This document shows positions 11,468 to 55,502 of a stretch of DNA of 64,000 nucleotides, in pieces. Numbering within the stretch: the first letter of the stretch is position 1; the number at the start of each line of letters is the position of its first letter. The DNA comes from Patescibacteria group bacterium UBA3466 (GTDB taxonomy: Bacteria; Patescibacteriota; Minisyncoccia; Phycocordibacterales; UBA918), in NCBI GenBank assembly GCA_002378195.1, contig DFRJ01000002.1, positions 204,816 through 268,815 of the forward strand. Reading direction: 5' to 3'. Under the pieces are notes generated by a model. It ran no database searches. It was not told the DNA's origin and saw only the letters and a program-made list of their open reading frames with translations. A program made the translations under genes and the position numbers.

Positions 11468-11803
11468 TTAGTGTAGAATGCATACTTTGATGTGCGGGTA
11501 CATATCATCCGGCACTTGTATCTCATCGGGGTCATAAGCCGCCGATCGTCCGTCAGATACGGCGGTCAATTCGACTCTTGCCAACACTTCAGCTGGCAGT
11601 CGGCGCTGCATGATATCGATGAAGCTGTTGATGTGACAGTCTTCAGTGCAGCACTGAGCCGAGTCTTCCTTTGGTTGAAACCGAAAGGTTTCAAGCTTCG
11701 GGCCCTCTCGCCCAGGCTGTACAATTTCGTAGTGAGTGTCACCGCCGATTTTGTAAATCAAGGCTTTCAACTCCGCTACAAATGGAACGATTTCTCTTTG
11801 CAC
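11468..11803 (-). CDS. Hypothetical protein (111 aa).
   Basis: Protein-like composition, CCTEDCH cysteines, and its own downstream terminator. The overlapping plus-strand ORF 11492..11833 has an R/S/L-rich antisense-like composition. Confidence 0.45.
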   Translation of the reverse strand: MQREIVPFVAELKALIYKIGGDTHYEIVQPGREGPKLETFRFQPKEDSAQCCTEDCHINSFIDIMQRRLPAEVLARVELTAVSDGRSAAYDPDEIQVPDDMYPHIKVCILH

Positions 11804-11909: not shown

Positions 11910-12239
11910 TTACAGCACTTTAATTCGCAAGGACCGCTCGTGTTGCCTAACACTCACTCCCCCCGCCAGACCCTGACGCTCGATCAGGTCCTTCACCGAC
12001 TCGGATATATGTTTAAGGTCATGGTTTGACATGGCACTACCATCTCGATCCATCGGTAGTACGGTAAAGTGACGGTCTGTATCGCTGTGTACGATGTCCG
12101 CTGTCTTACCTTCTACTCGACAAATGTCCTTGATAGTTTGCTTCAGGTTTTGTGCCAGATTGACCGGCTTAGTTGATTCAGGGGTGGTCAGCAATCTTGG
12201 CGACCGGCGCCTTTCCTTCATGAGGTGTACAACTCCCAT
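11910..12239 (-). CDS. Hypothetical protein (about 109 aa).
   Basis: The start was chosen at the Met preceded by GGAGA. The track's longer N-terminus (to 12299) would abut trpS. No recognisable motifs were found. Confidence 0.4.
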   Translation of the reverse strand: MGVVHLMKERRRSPRLLTTPESTKPVNLAQNLKQTIKDICRVEGKTADIVHSDTDRHFTVLPMDRDGSAMSNHDLKHISESVKDLIERQGLAGGVSVRQHERSLRIKVL

Positions 12240-12301
12240 ACATTTCTCCAATGTTATTTTGGGACACTCGAATAATACTGAATATATGAAAAGTGTCAAT
12301 C

Positions 12302-13285: not shown

Positions 13286-14977
13286 CTACATGGCCAGCGG
13301 TAGTTCTAGTGTGAAGCGTGAGCCTTTCCCTTCTCCTTCCGAGTGTGCAGTTATTTCACCACCCATTCCGATAGCCATTTTCTGGGCTACAAATAAGCCG
13401 AGACCAGTACCGTGAATGTTGACGCTATTGGCATTGTGAGCTCGTTCAAACTTACCAAATACAGTGTCTAAGGACTGTTGGTTCATACCGATACCTGTGT
13501 CTTCAATATCTACAAAGATGCGCTTCTTAACTACGTCATCACGAACCAAGACTTTAATACTGCCAGTTGGAGTGTACTTGATCGAGTTATTAATAAGGTT
13601 TTGGATAATTTGAATCACCTTTCCAATGTCCGCACAGACTACACCAGTGCTCTTTAGGTCGGAGCGGAACATCATGCTGAGCCCCTTCTTGAGAGCCTGT
13701 GGTCGGAGGTCATCAGAAATCTTCTCTGCTTCGTCCTTGAGGTTGAAGTCAGCGTTGTTGTATTTCATGTTGCCTGACTCGATGCGGGATACGTTGAGAT
13801 AGTCTTCAATTGAGTACGCCATATTCTTTGACGATTCAGATATACGCTCAATCGCCTCCTCTGCTTTTGGCGGCATTTTTCCGTAGCTTCCGTCAGCTAG
13901 CAGTGACGCATAACCTCTGATAGCGGTTAGCGGGCTGCGCAGTTGGTGGGACGCTATCGACACAAACTCCGACTTGAGCTTGTCCAACTCCTTAAGCCGC
14001 TCGTTTGCGTTAGCTAACTGTGCAGTTAATTTTTCAAGCTCCGATCTTTGTTCTATCTCTTTTCTTACTGATCGAATTAAAAATATTCCAGCTAGAGCTG
14101 TTAGCACCAGAGTGATGGAGGTGAGCACAAGAGTTGTTAATTCCCCGTTTGTGTAGGTGAACTGAGCTGCAATTAAGAGGACCAATGTTAGGACCAGGGC
14201 TTCAGCAGCGTGGGCGCCGACATTAAAGGTCTTAAATCTAACTATTAGTACACCCATCATGACCATAAAGATTGTCATCCCGAAGAATCCATATAGCTCC
14301 AACCTTGAATCTTCTACAAAATGAATTGTTGCAAGGAAGTCTGCTAGATAGAAAATTGTGAAAAATAGCACTAAGAAAGCTTGCACACCTATGCCCATGT
14401 ACACTATTTGCTTTTTAAATACTGAATCTGCGCGAGTTTTATAGTACTTAGATAAAAGCATCCAGGTGTTCCATATAATGGCAACGAGTCCTAAAAGACT
14501 ATAGTATGCGTTGTATAAGGCACCCTCAAAGTCAAAGGCGTTGCACCAGTCTATGTCAAAGCCGCTTAGATTCAGATTTGTAGGCGCCAGCAAGAAGGTT
14601 GGCAAGAGTAGTAGTGTAAATATTACCTTCATTCTGCCCGGGATGTCTTTTTTGTGTATGAATACGTATATGAAATATATACACAAGATAGAGACTAATG
14701 CCTGTAATGGTCCGAATAATGACCATACAAAAATCATGATGTCACTACGGTTGTTTGTCCAAGTAATTAAATTAAATACGGCAATTAGTGAGAAGCTTAA
14801 TGCTATAAAAAATAGAATTCTGTTTAATAGATTACTTGGATTATTTGAAAAAACAAAAATTCCCACTAGCAGAGATAAGGCGATGGCTGGCAAGTGGGCA
14901 TAATATAAGAGATCTGGTATCCAGTCTGCTTGGATAAAAAAGAAAAAACTTGGAGTTTCGGATCCGTAACAAATCAT
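13286..14977 (-). CDS. Sensor histidine kinase with about 7 N-terminal TM helices, a HisKA H-box and a HATPase_c domain. No response regulator is nearby.
   Basis: SHQLRSPLTAIRGYASLL (H-box) and GTGLGLFVAQKMAIGMGGEI (G2 box). Confidence 0.85.
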   Translation of the reverse strand: MICYGSETPSFFFFIQADWIPDLLYYAHLPAIALSLLVGIFVFSNNPSNLLNRILFFIALSFSLIAVFNLITWTNNRSDIMIFVWSLFGPLQALVSILCIYFIYVFIHKKDIPGRMKVIFTLLLLPTFLLAPTNLNLSGFDIDWCNAFDFEGALYNAYYSLLGLVAIIWNTWMLLSKYYKTRADSVFKKQIVYMGIGVQAFLVLFFTIFYLADFLATIHFVEDSRLELYGFFGMTIFMVMMGVLIVRFKTFNVGAHAAEALVLTLVLLIAAQFTYTNGELTTLVLTSITLVLTALAGIFLIRSVRKEIEQRSELEKLTAQLANANERLKELDKLKSEFVSIASHQLRSPLTAIRGYASLLADGSYGKMPPKAEEAIERISESSKNMAYSIEDYLNVSRIESGNMKYNNADFNLKDEAEKISDDLRPQALKKGLSMMFRSDLKSTGVVCADIGKVIQIIQNLINNSIKYTPTGSIKVLVRDDVVKKRIFVDIEDTGIGMNQQSLDTVFGKFERAHNANSVNIHGTGLGLFVAQKMAIGMGGEITAHSEGEGKGSRFTLELPLAM

Positions 14978-15357
14978 GATGTTATATCGTTAGTACATTC
15001 ATCTTCTGATGATGTTGCATCGCAGTAATCAATGGTGCACGACGGGTCATCAGGTTGGCATTCAAAAGCTGCGTCGCAGCTATAAACATCACGACCACAT
15101 AAATCGTATAGATAATCAGCCTGCCTTGTAATAATTGAGTAGTAGTAAGTAGACTCGCAAGCATCAGCCTCCTCTTCATCGTCGCAGCCAATATAACAAC
15201 TTTGTACCTCGCTATCGCAGTCGCCGGCATAGGATACCTGGTAATCATGTAGTACCATAAATCGATAATAGGATGATCCAACTACTAAGAGTATAAGAAC
15301 TGAATTTATTAGTAAGAGAAAATTGCCTCTAACTAACTTTTTCAATAACGGAGCCAT
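14974..15357 (-). CDS. Small membrane-anchored, Cys-rich (10 Cys) acidic protein, translationally coupled to the histidine kinase.
   Basis: An N-terminal TM helix, then DCDSEVQSCYIGCDDEEEADACE...SCDAAFECQPDDPSCTIDYCDATSSEDEC. Its stop overlaps the HK ATG (ATGA). Confidence 0.55.
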   Translation of the reverse strand: MAPLLKKLVRGNFLLLINSVLILLVVGSSYYRFMVLHDYQVSYAGDCDSEVQSCYIGCDDEEEADACESTYYYSIITRQADYLYDLCGRDVYSCDAAFECQPDDPSCTIDYCDATSSEDECTNDITS

Positions 15358-15411
15358 GATCTTCTAATTATAGCAGCAAGCAGTCGCTTGGATGGTGCTT
15401 ACTATTAACAC

Positions 15412-16332
15412 TTATGAAAGATATAAAAGAATGTATGTTCCAATGCCGGTAATGATGATGGCTAATAGTTTTTGCACCACATTCCTTAGGCTGATGTTTT
15501 CCTTGGTTATTCGCGGAAAGAATATAGTCAAAAAGATTCCTATAGCTAACACAAAGAAAGATTGGAATGATTCCATCAGCAGGATTAAAGCAATGGGTGC
15601 CATCATGGCGGCAAAAGAAACTGCCGCGTTTCCGAACATGTATATTATTTCATTTGAAATGTTTACACCTATAATCGCCTTAGAGTTTAATTTTAATGCG
15701 GTCAAAAAATGACCTCTGTATTCCCTGATGAAAAGTAGCATTAGTATTCCTAGGATGACTAGTACGGCACTGTTCCAAAATAAGGTTTGCAGCACATTTT
15801 CCTCAAGCGCCACCATCTTAAATAAGGTGGCTTCGAGTGCCCAAAAAAAGGATGCTAGAAGCATATAATAAACAGTATCTTTTCTTAATTTTAGGTTGTT
15901 TTCGTTGTCTATCTCAAAGGCAATGATTGTGGTTCCGAGAATAATTATGGCCATTGCAATAAGTTGCATCTGTGTGAGTACTTCGTCTAGTATGAAAAAA
16001 CCAAGAAAAATTCCAAATATTGGAACTAGTTGGTAAAACACTATTGCTATCGAAGCTTCGTCATTTTCTAAAGCCTTTAAGTAACAAAAGAGTATTAATA
16101 AGTCTAGTACTCCTATGAAAATTAAGAATAGAGCATTAAAAAGACTCACATTAAGAATGTTTGGTTCAATCAGATAAATTACTGGGAGAGCGAAGACTGA
16201 GAGCAGTGAAGAAAATAGCAGAAGAGTTCCCACTCCGCCCTCTTTAAAATATTTATCCAGAAGAATTTTATCCGTGTGGTTAGTTATTGCGTACAGAAAC
16301 GGACCAATCATTGCTACTAGAAACCAGGTCAT
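15412..16332 (-). CDS. EamA/DMT-family transporter (10 TM helices).
   Basis: Two EamA-like halves of hydrophobic helices. There is a 2-nt gap to the upstream gene. Confidence 0.72.
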   Translation of the reverse strand: MTWFLVAMIGPFLYAITNHTDKILLDKYFKEGGVGTLLLFSSLLSVFALPVIYLIEPNILNVSLFNALFLIFIGVLDLLILFCYLKALENDEASIAIVFYQLVPIFGIFLGFFILDEVLTQMQLIAMAIIILGTTIIAFEIDNENNLKLRKDTVYYMLLASFFWALEATLFKMVALEENVLQTLFWNSAVLVILGILMLLFIREYRGHFLTALKLNSKAIIGVNISNEIIYMFGNAAVSFAAMMAPIALILLMESFQSFFVLAIGIFLTIFFPRITKENISLRNVVQKLLAIIITGIGTYILLYLS

Positions 16333-16333
16333 A

Positions 16334-17161
16334 CTACTTATTCGTTATTGTTTTAATAAAATCTGACACCTCCCTCGGATAAGCGTTCCAGTTTCGATCA
16401 GACTCCTCTTTAGCTGTGATATGTTCGATTATTAAGGGTCGGACACCAATAATTCTTTCGATATATTTGAAAGCTGGATATACATTTTCTCTAAAAAATT
16501 GGTATTCTTCGGGTGTGAAGCATTCATACTGCATTCCATAAACACACATTATGGCCATTGTGCACTTATATTGCTCTAAAATGTCATCTCTATGATGTCT
16601 GTTCACCCATTCTGTCTCTGGTCCTATTTCGGTATTGCTCGGCTTGAATCTGTTAAATAGTTCTCTATGAAAGGTCACCAATAATTTATTCGATTCGGTC
16701 ATTATTTCTGACAGAGGCTTACCCTGGTTCGATGAAAAATCTATAATTGTTTTATATTCTATAATATCATTACCGTTCTTATCTACGCCAACAATTAGCG
16801 GTAGTTTGCCAAGCGGTAGCTTAAGTTCGTTGTCTGGTACAAATTTGCTTTCAGTATCTTCTCCGACTATCAATTTTAGATCAAACCTTGCGCTTTCGGT
16901 ACTGACTTTCTTGAGTTCAAGATTGGGAGTAGCCAGGAATCTTGAAAGGTAGAAAACTGGTTCCTTCTTACTAAAATGATCGGGCAGGTCTGTTTTTAGA
17001 AAATTGTCAACTTTATGAAAAATTTCTGGATCTTCCCTTCTTCGCTTTATTTCCGCAACTGCTTCTTCTGCGGGTGTATAAAAATCAGCCAATAGAAAAT
17101 TTATTGGCGTTATGCGTCTCAAAAGCCCTGCTATACGTTGTTGTAGCATTTTAGTACTCAT
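16334..17161 (-). CDS. Hypothetical protein (275 aa).
   Basis: A long ORF with no recognisable motifs. It contains Cys and His residues (CTMAIMCVYGMQYEC, IIEH). Confidence 0.5.
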   Translation of the reverse strand: MSTKMLQQRIAGLLRRITPINFLLADFYTPAEEAVAEIKRRREDPEIFHKVDNFLKTDLPDHFSKKEPVFYLSRFLATPNLELKKVSTESARFDLKLIVGEDTESKFVPDNELKLPLGKLPLIVGVDKNGNDIIEYKTIIDFSSNQGKPLSEIMTESNKLLVTFHRELFNRFKPSNTEIGPETEWVNRHHRDDILEQYKCTMAIMCVYGMQYECFTPEEYQFFRENVYPAFKYIERIIGVRPLIIEHITAKEESDRNWNAYPREVSDFIKTITNK

Positions 17162-17232
17162 CTTACTGTCTCACGCTCCCTTTTTATTGTAAATAGGTTA
17201 TTTTTACTAGTTGTGGATGTTACAATTTAATA

Positions 17233-17631
17233 ATGTTAGATATTTTCATACGAACCATTTCGGATAAAGACCAAAGATATGACACTGTAGGAGATTATCA
17301 GACTGACGAATGTGGTAAGCAGGTTATTTCGGTGTCTGATTTGAATAATGATAATTTTGAGTTTCTCATAGCCCTTCATGAATTAATTGAAAGTAAATTG
17401 TGTAAAGAAAGAGGAATTACTGATTCTCAAATTGATAAGTTTGATATAGATTACGAATCTAATAGAGAGGATGGAGACCAAGAATCTGAACCGGGAGATC
17501 AGCCTGACGCGCCTTATCACAAAGAGCACGTGTTTGCTTCTAGGATTGAAAAAATGATGGCAGATGAACTAGGTGTTGATTGGGAAAAATACAGTAAGGC
17601 TTGCTCAGAACTTACAGGTTCTTCTAATTAA
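17233..17631 (+). CDS. Hypothetical acidic protein (132 aa).
   Basis: A plus-strand gene divergent from 16334..17161, with a TACAAT -10 box 10 nt upstream and no SD (leaderless-like). It has an acidic low-complexity C-terminal half. Confidence 0.5.
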   Translation: MLDIFIRTISDKDQRYDTVGDYQTDECGKQVISVSDLNNDNFEFLIALHELIESKLCKERGITDSQIDKFDIDYESNREDGDQESEPGDQPDAPYHKEHVFASRIEKMMADELGVDWEKYSKACSELTGSSN

Positions 17632-18109
17632 GATACAGCAAGACCAGTGGGGCTAATAGCCACCAGAAGAAATATTCAGCGGGGGCAAAGAGTGATTGGA
17701 TCGGGGTGCCGGGGCTTAGGAACTCGGTGACTGGTAGGACGTGAAAACTAAATGTCATCACCAGAACTGTTACACCCAGTGCTAATAGTGACTTCTTGCC
17801 AAAAGATTCAAATTTATTTTCGCTGAATTCATCGGGCATGATTCTGGAAAAAAGCTTCGTGGCGAAAAAGGCTATGAAAATAAAAAATGCCATTTTTGCC
17901 ATTGCTACCTGCCCCGAATCTGCAAGGGTACCGAAGACTTTGTCGTAGTACGGAAATTCGATTGAAATAAGCAGAGCCAGGTAAAGTCCGCAGATAATAT
18001 TGATGACCGCCTGCCTACCCTTAAAAATGGCTATGGCAAGAGTCACGCCAAAGACTAAAAGCAAATATGCGATTTCAATGAGGAAGTCCAAAATAAACGC
18101 CCAGTTCAT
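17624..18109 (-). CDS. CvpA-like (colicin V production family) 4-TM membrane protein, putative.
   Basis: Size (161 aa) and TM topology resemble CvpA. This is a weak sequence-only call. Confidence 0.45.
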   Translation of the reverse strand: MNWAFILDFLIEIAYLLLVFGVTLAIAIFKGRQAVINIICGLYLALLISIEFPYYDKVFGTLADSGQVAMAKMAFFIFIAFFATKLFSRIMPDEFSENKFESFGKKSLLALGVTVLVMTFSFHVLPVTEFLSPGTPIQSLFAPAEYFFWWLLAPLVLLYLN

Positions 18110-18241
18110 AATTACATTATAAATACGTAAATGGACAATATTTTACTTTTCCACTTTTTGTAGGATAACTTAACATGAGTGGAAAGTGTGCTATTTTGTG
18201 TTTTAATTTAGTTTGGGCCACAAAATCATAAGGAGATAGAT

Positions 18242-18415
18242 GTGGGAAATACTGAATTGGTAGTTCTTGTTTATGTAGCAGCATTGCTATTTGTGGTTGG
18301 TCTAGCTATCGCTAAGGTCAAGCAAAATGGTGTGTCACCGGTTGGTGCTTTCAGTTTCATATTTTTACCACTGGGAGTCGCTGGTTATCTCGGCTACGCC
18401 ACTTTTGTTATGTAG
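18242..18415 (+). CDS. Small hydrophobic protein (57 aa), GTG start.
   Basis: AAGGAG (18230-18235), 6 nt spacer, then GTG. It has two hydrophobic segments and a weak hairpin downstream (18444-18464). It is absent from the track because of the non-ATG start and small size. Confidence 0.45.
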   Translation: MGNTELVVLVYVAALLFVVGLAIAKVKQNGVSPVGAFSFIFLPLGVAGYLGYATFVM

Positions 18416-18466
18416 TTCTTGTGCTGTTACCCATAACCCTTCGCGAAAGCTCGTGGAGGGCTTTCT

Positions 18467-50695: not shown

Positions 50696-52234
50696 ATGAG
50701 CACACTTGAAAGTTTGAAGCCTTGGCTGGGGCGAAAATCAGTTAGAGGATTGCTGTTATTAGCGGTAATTATCGTTGCAGCTATGCTTTTATCTGGGCAG
50801 GATGATGTTGCACTTGACGCAAAGCCTGACACCAAAACTATAGTAACCACCACTACCGCCACTGAGTATGTTGGCGGCAAATCTATTTCACTGATCGGCA
50901 ACGTAAGAGCCTTCACCGAAGCTGTAGTTACTGCCGAACAAGCTGGACGAGTGGTGGGTGTAAATGTGAGTCTAGGTCAGTCAGTGTCGGCCGGCACAGT
51001 CATTGCTACTCTAGAGAATGCGTCTGAGCGAGCAGCCGTGCTGCAGGCCGAAGGCGTGTATGACGCCGCTGTAGCCGCCGCTGCCCAAAGTACAGTTGGT
51101 GTTGATGAAGCACAAAATGGTGTCAAAAATGCTCAAAACAACGCCGTGTCAGCCTTTAAATCAGCTTTTAATGTGACTAACGGTGTAGTCTTGAACAACA
51201 TTGACACTTTTTTCTCCAGTCCCAACACTTCAGTGCCTGGTCTTAAAATTGACGGTCGCGGTTTTACCAATCAGCTAAATCAAGATCGAGTGTCGTTCCA
51301 AACCCTGCTGTCTACCTGGCAAATTAAAACTAATACTATCTCATCTGATTCGGACTTAGGTGCTGAATTACAGTATGCGTCAGAAAGTGTACAAAACGTG
51401 ATTAACACCATCGATACCTTCATTGCGGTATTCAACCAGCAAGAGAATTCAGATAGATACTCAGATGCAGAACTACAATCTTTCAGTACTACTTTCACGA
51501 GTTTGCGAGCCAATCTGATCAGTACTCAGTCATCACTTGATGCAGCTCTGACCGGCCTTGATGCTGCTGCAGACACTCTTGAAAGAGCTCAACTGTCTTC
51601 AGTTGGCAGCGTAAATTCTGCAGCTGACGCGCAGGTTAAGCAGGCCCTAGGCTCTCTAAGATCTGCTCAAGCAAATCTAGCCAAAACAATTCTACGTACT
51701 CCAATTAGCGGAACCATAAACTCTCTTTCAGTTAGAACTGGAGACTTCATCAACAACTTTGACACAGTAGCCATTGTTGCAAACAACGAAGCGCTTGAAG
51801 TGGTAACCTACATCAGCGACACTGAGCGCAGCATGATTTCTGAGGGTGACACTGTGCTGATTGAGGGTCAGTACGAAGGAGTGGTAACCAGTATTGCTCC
51901 AGCTGTTGACCCAGTAATAAAGAAAACTCAGGTGCGAATTGCCACTGAAGGAGCAAATATTCAGAACGGAGATACTGTTCGTATTAGCAAGGAGGCCTCA
52001 GATCAAGCGACAGTCCTTGAAACTGTAAGAGTGCCACTAACAGCAGTTAAGTTTGATCTCGAAGACGGTTATATGTTCACTATCAGCGATGGTCGTTTGG
52101 TGTCTGTTCCGGTGGAGATCGGCAATGTCTTTGGTAGCTCGGTCGAAATCCTGTCCGGCATCACTAGTTCTGACGAGTTCGTGGTAGATGCCCGAGGACT
52201 ACAAGTCGATGAAGAGGTTGAAATAGCAAACTAG
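50696..52234 (+). CDS. Efflux periplasmic adaptor (HlyD/MFP family).
   Basis: An N-terminal TM helix, a long coiled-coil hairpin, and beta-barrel/lipoyl-like motifs. Its stop is 1 nt before the RND pump. Confidence 0.8.
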   Translation: MSTLESLKPWLGRKSVRGLLLLAVIIVAAMLLSGQDDVALDAKPDTKTIVTTTTATEYVGGKSISLIGNVRAFTEAVVTAEQAGRVVGVNVSLGQSVSAGTVIATLENASERAAVLQAEGVYDAAVAAAAQSTVGVDEAQNGVKNAQNNAVSAFKSAFNVTNGVVLNNIDTFFSSPNTSVPGLKIDGRGFTNQLNQDRVSFQTLLSTWQIKTNTISSDSDLGAELQYASESVQNVINTIDTFIAVFNQQENSDRYSDAELQSFSTTFTSLRANLISTQSSLDAALTGLDAAADTLERAQLSSVGSVNSAADAQVKQALGSLRSAQANLAKTILRTPISGTINSLSVRTGDFINNFDTVAIVANNEALEVVTYISDTERSMISEGDTVLIEGQYEGVVTSIAPAVDPVIKKTQVRIATEGANIQNGDTVRISKEASDQATVLETVRVPLTAVKFDLEDGYMFTISDGRLVSVPVEIGNVFGSSVEILSGITSSDEFVVDARGLQVDEEVEIAN

Positions 52235-52235
52235 T

Positions 52236-55200
52236 ATGTGGGAATTCTTCATCAGAAATAACCGGTTCGCCTATTTGTTCATAGTAGCGTTGATCGGACT
52301 AGGTCTATATAGCCTTATCTCAATCCCACGCGAATCGTCACCAGAAGTGGTGGTGCCAGTTGGGGTGGTTTCTACTATTCTGCCTGGTGCGCCAGCTGCC
52401 GACGTTGAGTCGTTGGTTACTAATGAAATAGAAAGAGGCTTATCAAGCTTGGAAAATGTAAAAGAAATTACCTCAACCTCAAGAGAGGGTGTGTCTAGTG
52501 TTGTAGTTGAATTTGAAGCCAATGCAGATTTGGATGAATCAATTTTGGATCTCAAGGACGAAATAGATCAGATAAAGAATGACCTCCCTGACGATGCCGA
52601 GGATCCACTAGTTTCTGAAGTAAATTTTGTTGATCAGCCCATCATGACCTTGTCAGTTTCAGCCGATCTGACTGACTTTGAATTTACTGATCTGGCCGAT
52701 GATTTAGAGAGAGAAATCGAGAAGGTGGCTGGTGTCTCTAGAGTAGAAGTGTCAGGTGCTCGCAGTCGTGAAGTAACTGTGATAGTACGCCAAGAATCAC
52801 TGGAGCGTTTTGATATTTCTTTGAATGAGGTTACCAGTGCCATCCGTAATGCCAACCTTACTCTACCTATCGGTCAAATTGTCAGCGATGGAGTTTCCTA
52901 CAACGTCGCCTTTGAAGGTGATATTACTAACACTGATCAAATCGCCAATATCGGCGTCACCAGTCGCGGCGGACAGCCAATCTTCATAAAAGATATTGCC
53001 AACGTTGAGGATGGTCTTTCACCAGCTAGCAGCTTGTCACGTCTCAGTGTAGCCGGCGCTCCCTCGTTGAAATCGATTTCGATTAACGTCTACAAGCAAT
53101 CAGGTGGCGATATCACCAGAATTGCTGCAGACGTAAATAATCGAGTGGAAGAGCTCAAGTCTGCTGGACAACTTCTGGACGGCATCACCACAGTCACTGT
53201 GCTGGACGCCGGAGCTGATATTAAGTCTGATCTTGTTCAGCTTTCAAGTTCTGGGCTACAGACAGTCATTCTGGTAGTACTGTTGCTCGTGGTAGCGATC
53301 GGTTGGCGTGAAGGTTTGTTGGCCGGAACATCCATTCCTTTCTCATTCCTGTTTGGCTTCATCGGCCTTTATCTTTCTGGTAATACTATCAATTTCCTTA
53401 GCCTGTTTTCCTTGATTCTTGGTATCGGTATCCTGGTTGACTCAGCGATTGTGATGGTTGAAGGCATTAACCGCAAGATGAAAGACGACCTAAACATCGA
53501 CAAGCGCGAAGCGGCAATTCAGACTATTCGTGAGTTCTCTGCCCCACTTATCTCGGGCACCCTGACCACAGTTTCAATGTTTGTTGGACTTTTTATCGTC
53601 AGTGGTGTAATCGGTCAGTTTATTGCCAGTATTCCATTTACTTTAATCTTTTTGCTATTTGCTTCCCTGTTTGTGTCACTGGCTATAATCCCATTGATTG
53701 CTTCGACCTTCTTGCATCGACATAACCGCAGCGAATTGCAGGAGAAGCAGGTAGCCTATGCGCGTAAACTTGAGAACTGGTACCGCGCTAGAATGTCTAG
53801 AATTGTCGGGAATACAGCTCGAGAGAATAAGTTTTTGTCTGCTATTTTTGCTTTGCTAGTTTTCTCGCTATTTCTACCTATCAATGTATTTGCCGGCCTG
53901 ATCGCTGCTCCCTTGGTGTATGTGGTGTCGTTAAAGTTTTACACTCTACAAATCAAGAAGGGCTGGAGTAACTTCAAGCGTAAGCTACTTTCGGTACCAT
54001 CAGTTATTGCAACGATAGTCGTTGCAACAATGATTGTTGGTACTATTCTGCCTTCAGTTAACCTCGTAAAAGTCATCTTTTTTGAACAGAGCGATGTCGA
54101 CTTTATTATCGTAGAAGTTGAGAATCCAGAGGGTACTATAAAGGAGTTAACCGATATAGACATTCGAAGAGTCGAAGAGTATCTGTACGATGAGAATGAG
54201 ATTGAATCCTTCACTGTTACTGTCGGTAGCGGTAGTCAGTTCGGATCAGGTGGAACTGGTGAAAAGTTTGCCAACATTTTCATTAACCTAACTGATGATC
54301 GTTCACGTAATAGTACTGAGATTGTGGCAGACCTAAGACAGCAGATGTCAGAACTGCGTGACATAAAGGTGACTGTCAATCAGCCAAGTGACGGGCCTCC
54401 AACCGGTGCAGCAATTATTGTGAAGTTCTTGGGAGATGATTTGAAGGAAATCACTGACCTGGCCAATAAATCAGCTCAAATATTTAAGCAAACTGATGGT
54501 GCCATCAACGTTGAAACCAGTACCAACAGTAACAATACAGAGTTTGTGATTGAGCTTGATAGAGACAAGGCTGCAGCTCTAGGTTTAAGTCCGTTTACCA
54601 TTTCACAAGTAGCTAGAACTGCTTTATTTGGTACCGACGCTACATCCCTCACAACTATCGATGAAGATATAGATGTGGTAGTAAAACTGAACGTAGAGAA
54701 CAAAGACGGCATAAATACAGACAACTCTAATGTCACGTCTATCAACGCCCTTACCGACATCACCATCCCTTCAAACTCTGGCCCAATTCCACTTTCAAGC
54801 CTGGTAACAGTTTCATTGCGTGAATCTAGTTCAGTTATTAATCATGAGGACAACAAGCGAGTGGTTACTGTCACAGCTGATGTGGCAGACGGGGCCAATG
54901 CTCGTGAAGTGCAAATGGCTGCCGTTGCCAATATTGAAGCCGAACTAGACATCCCAGCTGATGTCACCCTAAGTACTGGTGGTGGAGAGACTGATGAGTC
55001 AAACAAAGCCTTCATTGAGATGGGGCTAGCGTTAATTGTTGGTATCGGCTTGATGATCGGTATTTTGACCCTGCAATTTAATTCATACCGTCACATGAGA
55101 TACGTGCTTTCAATCCTGCCGTACTCTCTCATCGGTATTATGTGTGGTTTAGCAATTACGCAAAGCTCACTCTCCTTCCCTTCAATGATGGGCTTCATTG

Positions 55201-55502
55201 CTCTGTCAGGCATCGTGGTGAACAACTCGATTCTACTGATAGACATGATGAATCAAATGCGGCGCTCTCGGCCCTATGCTGAGGTGCGTGAAGTTGTACT
55301 CGATGCTGCATCAAACCGCCTACGTCCGATTCTCCTCACTACCATTACCACCATATTTGGTATGGTTCCTCTCACCTACGCTGGTGATTTATGGGCTCCC
55401 CTAGCCTATGCTGTGATGTTTGGACTAGTGTTCTCGGTAGTCATTACCTTGGTACTGATACCAATCACCTACAGTCGAAATCCTGGCCGGTTGCCAAAAT
55501 AA
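52236..55502 (+). CDS. RND-family efflux transporter (AcrB-like), 1088 aa.
   Basis: 12-TM architecture with two large periplasmic loops (ACR_tran pattern). Confidence 0.9.
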   Translation: MWEFFIRNNRFAYLFIVALIGLGLYSLISIPRESSPEVVVPVGVVSTILPGAPAADVESLVTNEIERGLSSLENVKEITSTSREGVSSVVVEFEANADLDESILDLKDEIDQIKNDLPDDAEDPLVSEVNFVDQPIMTLSVSADLTDFEFTDLADDLEREIEKVAGVSRVEVSGARSREVTVIVRQESLERFDISLNEVTSAIRNANLTLPIGQIVSDGVSYNVAFEGDITNTDQIANIGVTSRGGQPIFIKDIANVEDGLSPASSLSRLSVAGAPSLKSISINVYKQSGGDITRIAADVNNRVEELKSAGQLLDGITTVTVLDAGADIKSDLVQLSSSGLQTVILVVLLLVVAIGWREGLLAGTSIPFSFLFGFIGLYLSGNTINFLSLFSLILGIGILVDSAIVMVEGINRKMKDDLNIDKREAAIQTIREFSAPLISGTLTTVSMFVGLFIVSGVIGQFIASIPFTLIFLLFASLFVSLAIIPLIASTFLHRHNRSELQEKQVAYARKLENWYRARMSRIVGNTARENKFLSAIFALLVFSLFLPINVFAGLIAAPLVYVVSLKFYTLQIKKGWSNFKRKLLSVPSVIATIVVATMIVGTILPSVNLVKVIFFEQSDVDFIIVEVENPEGTIKELTDIDIRRVEEYLYDENEIESFTVTVGSGSQFGSGGTGEKFANIFINLTDDRSRNSTEIVADLRQQMSELRDIKVTVNQPSDGPPTGAAIIVKFLGDDLKEITDLANKSAQIFKQTDGAINVETSTNSNNTEFVIELDRDKAAALGLSPFTISQVARTALFGTDATSLTTIDEDIDVVVKLNVENKDGINTDNSNVTSINALTDITIPSNSGPIPLSSLVTVSLRESSSVINHEDNKRVVTVTADVADGANAREVQMAAVANIEAELDIPADVTLSTGGGETDESNKAFIEMGLALIVGIGLMIGILTLQFNSYRHMRYVLSILPYSLIGIMCGLAITQSSLSFPSMMGFIALSGIVVNNSILLIDMMNQMRRSRPYAEVREVVLDAASNRLRPILLTTITTIFGMVPLTYAGDLWAPLAYAVMFGLVFSVVITLVLIPITYSRNPGRLPK

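Follow-up and report, generated by a model that had tools for sequence, protein, structure and literature searches.

A cysteine-rich membrane protein family paired with a polytopic histidine kinase in Paceibacteria, and its candidate role in a two-subunit sensor

Background

Bacteria of the candidate phyla radiation (CPR, Patescibacteria) have tiny genomes and depend on hosts, and little is known about the ways in which they perceive their environment. A 64-kb stretch of DNA from Patescibacteria group bacterium UBA3466 (contig DFRJ01000002.1, positions 204,816 to 268,815 of the forward strand; the whole stretch is called the window below) contains one sensor kinase gene, with a second just past its end. 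The start codon of this kinase overlaps the stop codon of a gene for a 127-amino-acid (aa) cysteine-rich protein, which raises the question of what such a small protein does beside a membrane kinase, and whether the two belong to a larger unit. The analysis newly defines a large unannotated protein family whose members have, practically without exception, a membrane kinase of one type as their partner, with codons of the two genes often overlapping, as well as a wider operon in which three unrelated enzymes of amino-acid-ligase type replace each other beside a transporter. What is new here is the partner family with its unmatched fold, together with the operon architecture, in CPR bacteria. 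Literature searches returned no paper describing the cysteine-rich family or its module; one paper linking cysteine-rich motifs, Patescibacteria and kinases was set aside as unrelated, being concerned with heliorhodopsins.

Results

Gene structure of the operon

Four tightly packed genes occupy 13.2–17.2 kb on the minus strand of the window, in the order 275-aa protein, EamA transporter, 127-aa cysteine-rich protein and kinase. Coordinates in nucleotides (nt) are as follows.

16334-17161, minus strand: 275-aa protein, opening the operon, with a gap of 1 nt to the EamA gene
15412-16332, minus strand: EamA/DMT-family transporter, 306 aa (Pfam EamA, E 2.9e-12), 54 nt from the cysteine-rich gene
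14974-15357, minus strand: 127-aa cysteine-rich protein, 4-nt ATGA overlap with the kinase gene
15265-15327, minus strand: hydrophobic helix of the cysteine-rich protein, residues ~11-31, type II anchor or signal peptide
14977-15249, minus strand: cysteine-rich acidic domain, residues 37-127, 10 Cys, predicted extracytoplasmic
14974-14977, minus strand: ATGA stop/start overlap (tcATGAtt, 4 nt), with the TGA of the cysteine-rich gene inside the ATG region of the kinase gene
13286-14977, minus strand: sensor histidine kinase, 563 aa, HisKA and HATPase_c, 39 nt from the TrpRS gene
14048-14977, minus strand: kinase sensor domain, residues 1-310, nine hydrophobic segments, predicted outside N-terminus
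13292-13975, minus strand: kinase catalytic core (HisKA and ATPase domain), residues ~335-562, Pfam boundaries

The overlap of the kinase ATG with the stop of the 127-aa gene, reported in an earlier note made from the sequence alone, is plainly visible as the 4-nt ATGA. The same note had placed the EamA and 275-aa genes downstream of this pair, with a gap of 2 nt before EamA; in fact both lie transcriptionally upstream, and the short gap is that of 1 nt between the 275-aa gene and EamA, while EamA and the cysteine-rich gene are 54 nt apart. A scan for promoters and terminators was uninformative: promoter-like sites numbered 10 where 17.5 were expected, and the minus strand over 13.2–17.2 kb showed no convincing terminator between genes.

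Pairing of the cysteine-rich gene and the kinase across loci

Eighty metagenome loci (designated L with a number) were fetched by means of the family motif, and their open reading frames (ORFs) were scored with profiles of the window proteins. Deduplication left 72 loci, of which 66 were informative, that is, contained sequence downstream of the cysteine-rich gene; these neighbourhood counts come from related genomes and are not phylogenetically independent. A kinase with a homologous sensor domain was the next gene after the cysteine-rich gene in 62 of the 66 loci and followed after one inserted gene (a SET-domain protein or the 275-aa family) in the other four, so that the kinase was missing in 0/66. 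The ATGA-type stop/start overlap was present in 46 of the 66. EamA lay upstream of the pair in 40 of the 42 loci for which 2.5 kb or more of upstream sequence was available. In a separate count it was adjacent to the cysteine-rich gene on the same strand in 34/56 loci. This lineage-wide association is robust and previously undescribed; its function, which we infer, is considered in the Discussion.

The picture of a coupled cysteine-rich protein and kinase given in the earlier note therefore holds, with EamA, cysteine-rich gene and kinase strongly co-conserved; the note had proposed that a lack of co-conservation among the neighbouring genes would count against it, and no such lack was seen for these three. 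Its broader claim of a joint module stands for EamA, the cysteine-rich gene and the kinase, which travel together, and fails for the 161-aa and 132-aa genes on the far side of the operon, which do not.

One locus carries a Cys-free, membrane-anchored acidic protein of 105 aa in the position of the cysteine-rich gene (L011:10822-11139), which keeps the motif YYKMVVLQDF; a SET-domain gene lies between it and a kinase of the same type. As the anchor and the motif are kept here, the helix and its juxtamembrane motif appear to be the constant, and probably the kinase-contacting, element.

SET-domain genes (lysine methyltransferase-type, Pfam E 1.8e-12) were also inserted in the module at L010:10790-11407 and in seven other loci (for example L034, L038, L042, L049, L052 and L078), either before the cysteine-rich gene or between it and the kinase.

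A large unannotated family of cysteine-rich proteins

The 127-aa protein consists of a basic N-terminus, one hydrophobic helix, a juxtamembrane motif YYRFMVLxDY and an acidic ectodomain with 10 Cys; the tail holds 24 Asp/Glu and 6 Lys/Arg besides the cysteines. The single helix and the acidic 10-Cys tail are thus as the earlier note had described them. An AlphaFold2 (AF2) model was confident, with a predicted local distance difference test score (pLDDT) of 86.9, and had a long N-terminal helix, residues 13-35 being helical at pLDDT 95-98.

When 1.84 billion representatives were searched exhaustively with a profile, 765 cluster representatives were recovered at E<=0.001, 384 of them at E<=1e-10. 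A single-sequence search had given two clusters, understating the family, and a first profile search 42. The possibility of a chance ORF was rejected on the strength of this conserved family, and the ORF was intact in all relatives examined; its absence or a frameshift in close relatives was the outcome that the note had named as fatal to its proposal.

The architecture is constant throughout: the basic N-terminus is short, a single hydrophobic stretch leads to the motif [S][YF][YF]RF[MI]V.xDY, and a Cys domain of ~80 residues follows, ending in an acidic C-terminal tail that is variable and often very long. The uncharged/hydrophobic stretch measures 19-21 residues in 155 of 175 members (89%) and is flanked by N-terminal basic residues and an invariant Arg. 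The cysteines are spaced C-x6-C-x3-C-x4-C-x19-C-x6-C-x5-C-x6-C-x4-C-x7/8-C, with x8 between the third and fourth Cys in the window copy. All 10 were retained in 215 of 255 full-length members. The third and fourth cysteines (C3, C4) were lost together in ~14 members and the seventh and ninth (C7, C9) in two, which is the pattern expected of disulfide partners; where the fourth Cys alone seems to be lost, some of the cases probably reflect a shifted alignment in the variable loop.

Neither the window protein nor 24 relatives matched any Pfam or NCBIfam family, and no fold match was found for the model. The sequence contains no CxxC or CxC motifs of metal-binding type and no double-glycine leader. 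Suggestions that the protein might be a knottin, a bacteriocin or a metallothionein consequently found no backing at the level of either family or fold. The family is large, unannotated and of a fold without detectable relative.

The kinase

The 563-aa protein is a sensor histidine kinase of the HisKA class, having a HisKA domain with the conserved His (residues 335-402, E 1.9e-16) and HATPase_c (residues 450-562, E 8.1e-24), with the H, N, G1, F and G2 boxes readable as SHQLRSPLT, NLINNSIKYT, DTGIGM, FGKFERA and GTGLGL. The domains are preceded by an N-terminal sensor with nine predicted transmembrane (TM) segments and a coiled linker. The best NCBIfam matches covered the catalytic core only, with scores under the family cut-offs. 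Loop charges fit the positive-inside rule with the N-terminus outside and the catalytic core inside, giving the predicted topology. Two cysteines stand out: Cys3, within the start M-I-C, was found in 82 of 83 homologues, and Cys145, in the motif C[DN]AF of the TM4-TM5 loop, in 75 of the 75 aligned. Both lie in segments predicted to face outward.

No match to the sensor domain was found among PDB sequences. The uncharacterised Pfam family HisKA_7TM (PF16927) was matched by three of eight close relatives (best E 3.3e-5), and the window copy had no match to it at E<=10. Since relatives match, the sensor is probably a divergent member of that family, with which it shares the order of a polytopic membrane sensor at the N-terminus and then HisKA and HATPase_c, whereas it differs in its nine predicted segments instead of seven and in the invariant Cys3 and Cys145. 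The label '7TM' given to the kinase in the earlier note is inexact, hydropathy giving nine segments. HisKA_7TM is presented as an uncharacterised sensor domain, and no partner protein is mentioned, in the available portions of two papers (PMC5847659, PMC6944256).

In one Paceibacteria metagenome-assembled genome (MAG), a second, shorter kinase-like gene of 404 aa directly follows the module kinase (L010:13567-14781); its catalytic core is similar to that of the module kinase and its N-terminus different.

The EamA transporter and an interchangeable enzyme

In an EamA/DMT transporter two EamA repeats and ~10 TM helices are expected. Pfam detected one repeat in the window protein, at residues 2-138 (E 2.9e-12, which passes the cut-off), but none in its second half; the match to TIGR00950 (E 2.8e-8) was far under its cut-off. 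Clustering of neighbouring genes within ~5 kb in 83 non-identical loci gave the following recurrence.

Cys-rich protein: 76/83 loci
Kinase: 76/83 loci
EamA: 68/83 loci
LPG_synthase_C-like protein, ~306 aa (Pfam E 3e-30): 31/83 loci
275-aa family: 18/83 loci
TrpRS: 15/83 loci
161-aa family: 12/83 loci
GARS-like ATP-grasp: 11/83 loci
AdoMet decarboxylase: 10/83 loci
SET-domain protein: 8/83 loci
Receiver: 4/83 loci

Exactly one of three enzymes stood beside EamA in 40 of the 42 loci with long upstream sequence (not phylogenetically independent), namely the LPG_synthase_C-like protein in 24, the 275-aa family in 10 and the ATP-grasp protein in six, with none of the three in two loci and two together in none. 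The LPG_synthase_C-like protein and the 275-aa family are not homologous (hhalign probability 0.4%). All three appear to come from enzyme classes by which an amino acid or amine is joined to an acceptor, and their mutual exclusivity suggests analogous jobs.

In the window this slot is filled by the 275-aa protein, which is cytoplasmic and has a predicted Rossmann-like HUP fold of the type seen in class I aminoacyl-tRNA synthetases (aaRS). The protein, called unrecognisable in the earlier note, indeed matched no Pfam or NCBIfam family; Pfam scans of its family were likewise empty, and no significant match among PDB sequences was obtained. The ATP-binding motifs HIGH (HxGH) and KMSKS are absent both from its sequence and from the invariant columns of the family alignment. 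Compared with HUP ligases (class I aaRS cores, BshC, cyclodipeptide synthases), it shows 4-10% sequence identity.

An AdoMet decarboxylase gene (Pfam E 6.9e-26; polyamine synthesis) was observed by the enzyme-EamA part in L018, L022, L032, L046, L056, L073 and L088-L090, and a spermidine synthase gene near a divergent module copy in L013.

Search for a response regulator

The kinase had been described as an orphan. No receiver domain was found in the 64-kb window by phmmer with CheY, PhoB, NarL, Spo0F and two CPR receivers, or by Pfam on 30 larger ORFs at 26.9-64 kb, nor was one found in 19 loci of close relatives; in the window, a regulator encoded with the kinase, as in a complete two-component system, is missing. 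The description holds to that extent, but not beyond it. In L073/74, L083 and L032/45 (four lineages only) the gene immediately after the kinase encodes a single-domain receiver (Pfam Response_reg E 5e-20), with no common output found among the genes after these receivers. The window could moreover be extended with a contig 100% identical over uvrC, which supplied a gene block between uvrB and uvrA. Here, ~5.4-6.2 kb beyond the right end of the window, lies a REC-REC regulator of 269 aa with no output domain. Its C-terminal receiver shares 33% identity (E 5e-22) with the one encoded after the Cys-kinase pair of L073. The REC-REC protein, ~55 kb away from the window kinase, is the obvious candidate for its partner.

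The REC-REC gene belongs to a second signalling operon (L104:2221-6935, ~65.4-70.2 kb in window numbering), which further encodes a kinase of 444 aa and a Big_13 surface protein of 855 aa whose N-terminus is rich in Lys.

Discussion

Proposed mechanism and rival readings

We lean towards the view that a single sensor is built from two subunits, the 127-aa protein and the kinase, in which the small protein would be an N-in/C-out anchored, disulfide-stabilised co-sensor subunit. A co-sensor was among the roles offered in the earlier note, and it stays the best reading in view of the coupling and invariable pairing, the 19-21-residue span, the continuous and confident helix, the outward-facing invariant cysteines of the kinase and the motif kept in the Cys-less analogue. 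From the observed gene structure, family conservation, coupling and neighbourhood statistics we infer a topology, disulfides, physical contact, a signal and a partner regulator along the following lines. Termination-reinitiation at the ATGA overlap would yield both proteins in a fixed proportion. The small protein would insert with its N-terminus inside and its C-terminus outside, placing an acidic domain of ~90 residues, probably with five disulfides, on the outside of the membrane and so supplying the extracytoplasmic domain that the 9-TM kinase lacks. This domain may contact the N-terminal tail of the kinase (Cys3) and its TM4-TM5 loop (Cys145), further contact being made probably through the conserved helix and the YYRFMVLxDY motif. 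The state of the ectodomain, whether set by ligand, cation or redox conditions, would then determine kinase activity, and the phosphoryl group would pass to a receiver-only regulator encoded elsewhere, for which REC-REC is the candidate.

The sensing pair would form half of a larger operon, the other half comprising EamA and an enzyme of amino-acid-ligase type, here the 275-aa HUP-fold protein. This arrangement suggests a link between the sensor and the synthesis and export, or flipping, of a compound derived from amino acids or of such a modification of the envelope. Candidate signals would be the redox or thiol state, as hinted by the cysteines, cations or polyamines, as hinted by the acidity and by the AdoMet decarboxylase in 10 loci, and the product of enzyme and transporter, as hinted by the operon structure. 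The pair, usually together with transporter and enzyme, recurs in dozens of Paceibacteria and probably constitutes a dedicated sensing module. A more ambitious version, which we consider unlikely as a whole, would have a self-contained make-export-sense circuit peculiar to Paceibacteria: an enzyme, interchangeably an aminoacyl-tRNA-dependent transferase, a HUP-fold protein or an ATP-grasp, makes a product (a molecule derived from amino acids, or an envelope modification), EamA exports or flips it, and a redox-gated co-receptor, a new class with a disulfide-rich fold not seen before, reports the level of the product or the state of envelope or host to the 9-TM kinase.

Several observations weigh against a two-subunit sensor. 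Ahead of the conserved [YF][YF]R, position -1 is Ser in 81% of members and position -3 is Gly, Ala or Ser in 61%, which suits a signal-peptidase site, so that the Cys domain might be released rather than anchored. In several loci a SET-domain, 275-aa, formyltransferase or acetyltransferase gene stands between the cysteine-rich gene and the kinase. The kinase of L011 retains its two cysteines though its partner has none, and the kinase cysteines are hence independent of those of the partner. Lastly, the relatedness of the genomes counted means that the statistical support is overstated.

The small residues ahead of [YF][YF]R are also the chief argument for a secreted signal or soluble co-receptor, in which a cleaved signal peptide would release a disulfide-rich protein of ~95 residues to act as an autocrine or paracrine cue or as a ligand-binding partner. 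Such a role would be in keeping with the position of the small gene directly upstream of a kinase with a polytopic membrane sensor and after a membrane transporter gene, a gene order parallel to agrB-agrD-agrC and comC-comD, and with the long, variable and very acidic C-terminal tails of many members, typical of exposed regions. We nevertheless regard secretion as doubtful. The length of the hydrophobic stretch is tightly fixed, the AF2 model draws one continuous, confident helix across the putative cleavage site, and the motif straddling that site, better conserved than anything else in the protein, is kept in L011 even where the Cys domain is replaced. The protein moreover has no double-glycine leader and the cluster no conserved peptide-processing enzyme or ABC exporter, a folded domain of 90 residues is far above the size of known Gram-positive pheromones, and EamA-family carriers transport small metabolites and are not known to move proteins.

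It is distinctly unlikely that the protein has a surface job of its own, in metal or cation binding, host adhesion or structure, and shares no more than a transcript with the kinase, perhaps being regulated rather than serving as a subunit. In favour of this, cells of CPR bacteria are attached to their hosts and require proteins at the surface, an ectodomain so rich in Asp/Glu and Cys could bind cations or metals, and in some loci other genes intervene before the kinase. Yet if there were no functional tie, a 4-nt overlap kept in 46/66 loci would be difficult to account for, and every informative locus with the cysteine-rich gene also has this kinase type. CxxC and CxC motifs of metal type are wanting, the pairwise loss of cysteines fits disulfides better than a metal cluster, and there was no match to metallothionein, knottin or any other family or fold. 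Very improbable, finally, is a negative regulator in the manner of MgrB, a small protein that, bringing no signal of its own, inhibits the kinase or sets its basal activity while its disulfides passively report envelope redox. MgrB represses PhoQ and needs its periplasmic cysteines, the same observations serve this proposal as serve the co-sensor, which it overlaps rather than excludes, and the module occurs in oxic surface ocean and in loci with groundwater names. A conserved, folded domain of 90 residues on a fixed 10-Cys scaffold is, however, more than a simple inhibitor needs, and feedback regulators of the MgrB type are usually controlled by the system's own regulator, not translationally coupled upstream of the kinase.

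Three testable objects emerge: a candidate two-subunit sensor, a candidate receiver-only regulator and a candidate exported product. Should the co-sensor reading be true, the family would be a new structural class among the small-protein modulators of two-component systems and would assign a partner to the uncharacterised HisKA_7TM-like sensor domain. Should the circuit be real, it would be among very few signalling systems in reduced, host-dependent genomes and could bear on host sensing by CPR bacteria.

Comparison with known systems

Small membrane proteins are known to modulate sensor kinases, as do MgrB with PhoQ (where a periplasmic Cys is needed), MzrA with EnvZ and YycH/YycI with WalK. 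The window protein resembles the partners in MgrB-PhoQ, MzrA-EnvZ, SafA-PhoQ and YycH/YycI-WalK in being a single-pass protein with an extracytoplasmic part, encoded beside a membrane kinase or regulating one; MzrA, at ~127 aa with an N-terminal anchor, is of the same size and build. Unlike them, the window partner lies upstream of its kinase and is translationally coupled to it, has a 10-Cys scaffold, occurs in CPR bacteria, and pairs with a 9-TM kinase that itself has almost no extracytoplasmic domain. For the window protein and 24 relatives, Pfam and NCBIfam gave no match to a family of MgrB, MzrA or SafA, in libraries not confirmed to hold those models. The resemblance to MgrB, MzrA and SafA is one of functional analogy only.

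With the agrBDCA and comCDE systems the operon shares a membrane protein, a small precursor of secreted type and a polytopic kinase whose sensor consists almost entirely of TM helices. It differs in that a folded, probably disulfide-bonded domain of 90 residues takes the place of a short peptide, that there is no AgrB-like or ABC gene for processing or export and no LytTR regulator, and that the regulator is missing from the operon in most loci. LPG_synthase_C is the aminoacyl-tRNA-dependent transferase domain of MprF, a lysyl-phosphatidylglycerol synthase and flippase. In 24/42 loci a stand-alone LPG_synthase_C-like gene adjoins the transporter, a membrane carrier, and a membrane kinase whose outer surface is acidic, which recalls MprF with its GraRS/ApsRS circuit. 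In contrast to MprF, the window has the 275-aa HUP-fold protein and no LPG_synthase_C homologue, the transporter is of DMT/EamA type instead of the MprF flippase domain, and a lipid substrate is only putative. The window system is not a homologous member of the MgrB/MzrA/SafA/YycH-I, agr/com or MprF systems.

Genomic setting and flanking genes

The window belongs to a marine CPR bacterium: its proteins recur on Tara Oceans and JGI marine assemblies, and their closest relatives in genome collections are Candidatus Paceibacteria MAGs. Besides the oxic surface ocean, the module occurs in loci whose record names indicate groundwater sampling (e.g. 'Hain-H51' records). It is embedded in the conserved synteny DnaK-DnaJ-Impact ... 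TrpRS-AspRS, and close relatives found through the 275-aa protein keep the gene order there. The GC content at 14001-18000 is 38%, compared with 44-47% in the flanks. Horizontal acquisition of the block, an idea prompted by this dip at 14-18 kb, was rejected: a recent acquisition is unlikely because the block is syntenic in relatives and the dip coincides with AT-rich membrane-protein genes. The view of the block as an accessory module rather than housekeeping has accordingly to be given up, as it is lineage-conserved within this synteny and no accessory island.

Two genes beyond the 275-aa gene had been counted with the operon.

17624-18109, minus strand: 161-aa membrane ORF without Pfam/NCBIfam family
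17233-17631, plus strand: 132-aa acidic ORF, divergent, with TACAAT ending 6 nt before its ATG

Both are outside the module. The 161-aa gene accompanies DnaJ/Impact_N and is absent where the module sits elsewhere in the genome. Its designation as CvpA-like could not be upheld, Colicin_V (PF02674) matching one of eight family members at E 0.99, and comparison of the family with E. coli CvpA gave an hhalign probability of 0.2%. The 132-aa protein was rightly called acidic and divergent; with TACAAT so close and no Shine-Dalgarno sequence before the ATG, the leaderless transcript also proposed for it is plausible. It had no Pfam/NCBIfam family and no significant match among PDB sequences. Homologues occur in L006, L011, L040 and L042, the gene being near the module in a minority of loci (few lineages) and absent in others.

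Between TrpRS and AspRS, an interval that is variable among relatives, the window has two small ORFs without family match (11468-11803 and 11910-12299, minus strand), annotated as 111-aa and 109-aa genes on identical contigs. Further along, at 50696-55502 on the plus strand, this CPR genome has genes for an HlyD-like membrane-fusion protein (512 aa) and an AcrB-type resistance-nodulation-division (RND) transporter (1088 aa, Pfam E 1.4e-174), and nothing encoding an outer-membrane channel was seen close to them. A 57-aa hydrophobic ORF at 18242-18415 (plus strand) has a GTG start preceded by AGGAG and is also called as a gene on an ENA contig. It is followed at 18437-18460 by a strong hairpin terminator, itself convergent with the Impact_N gene.

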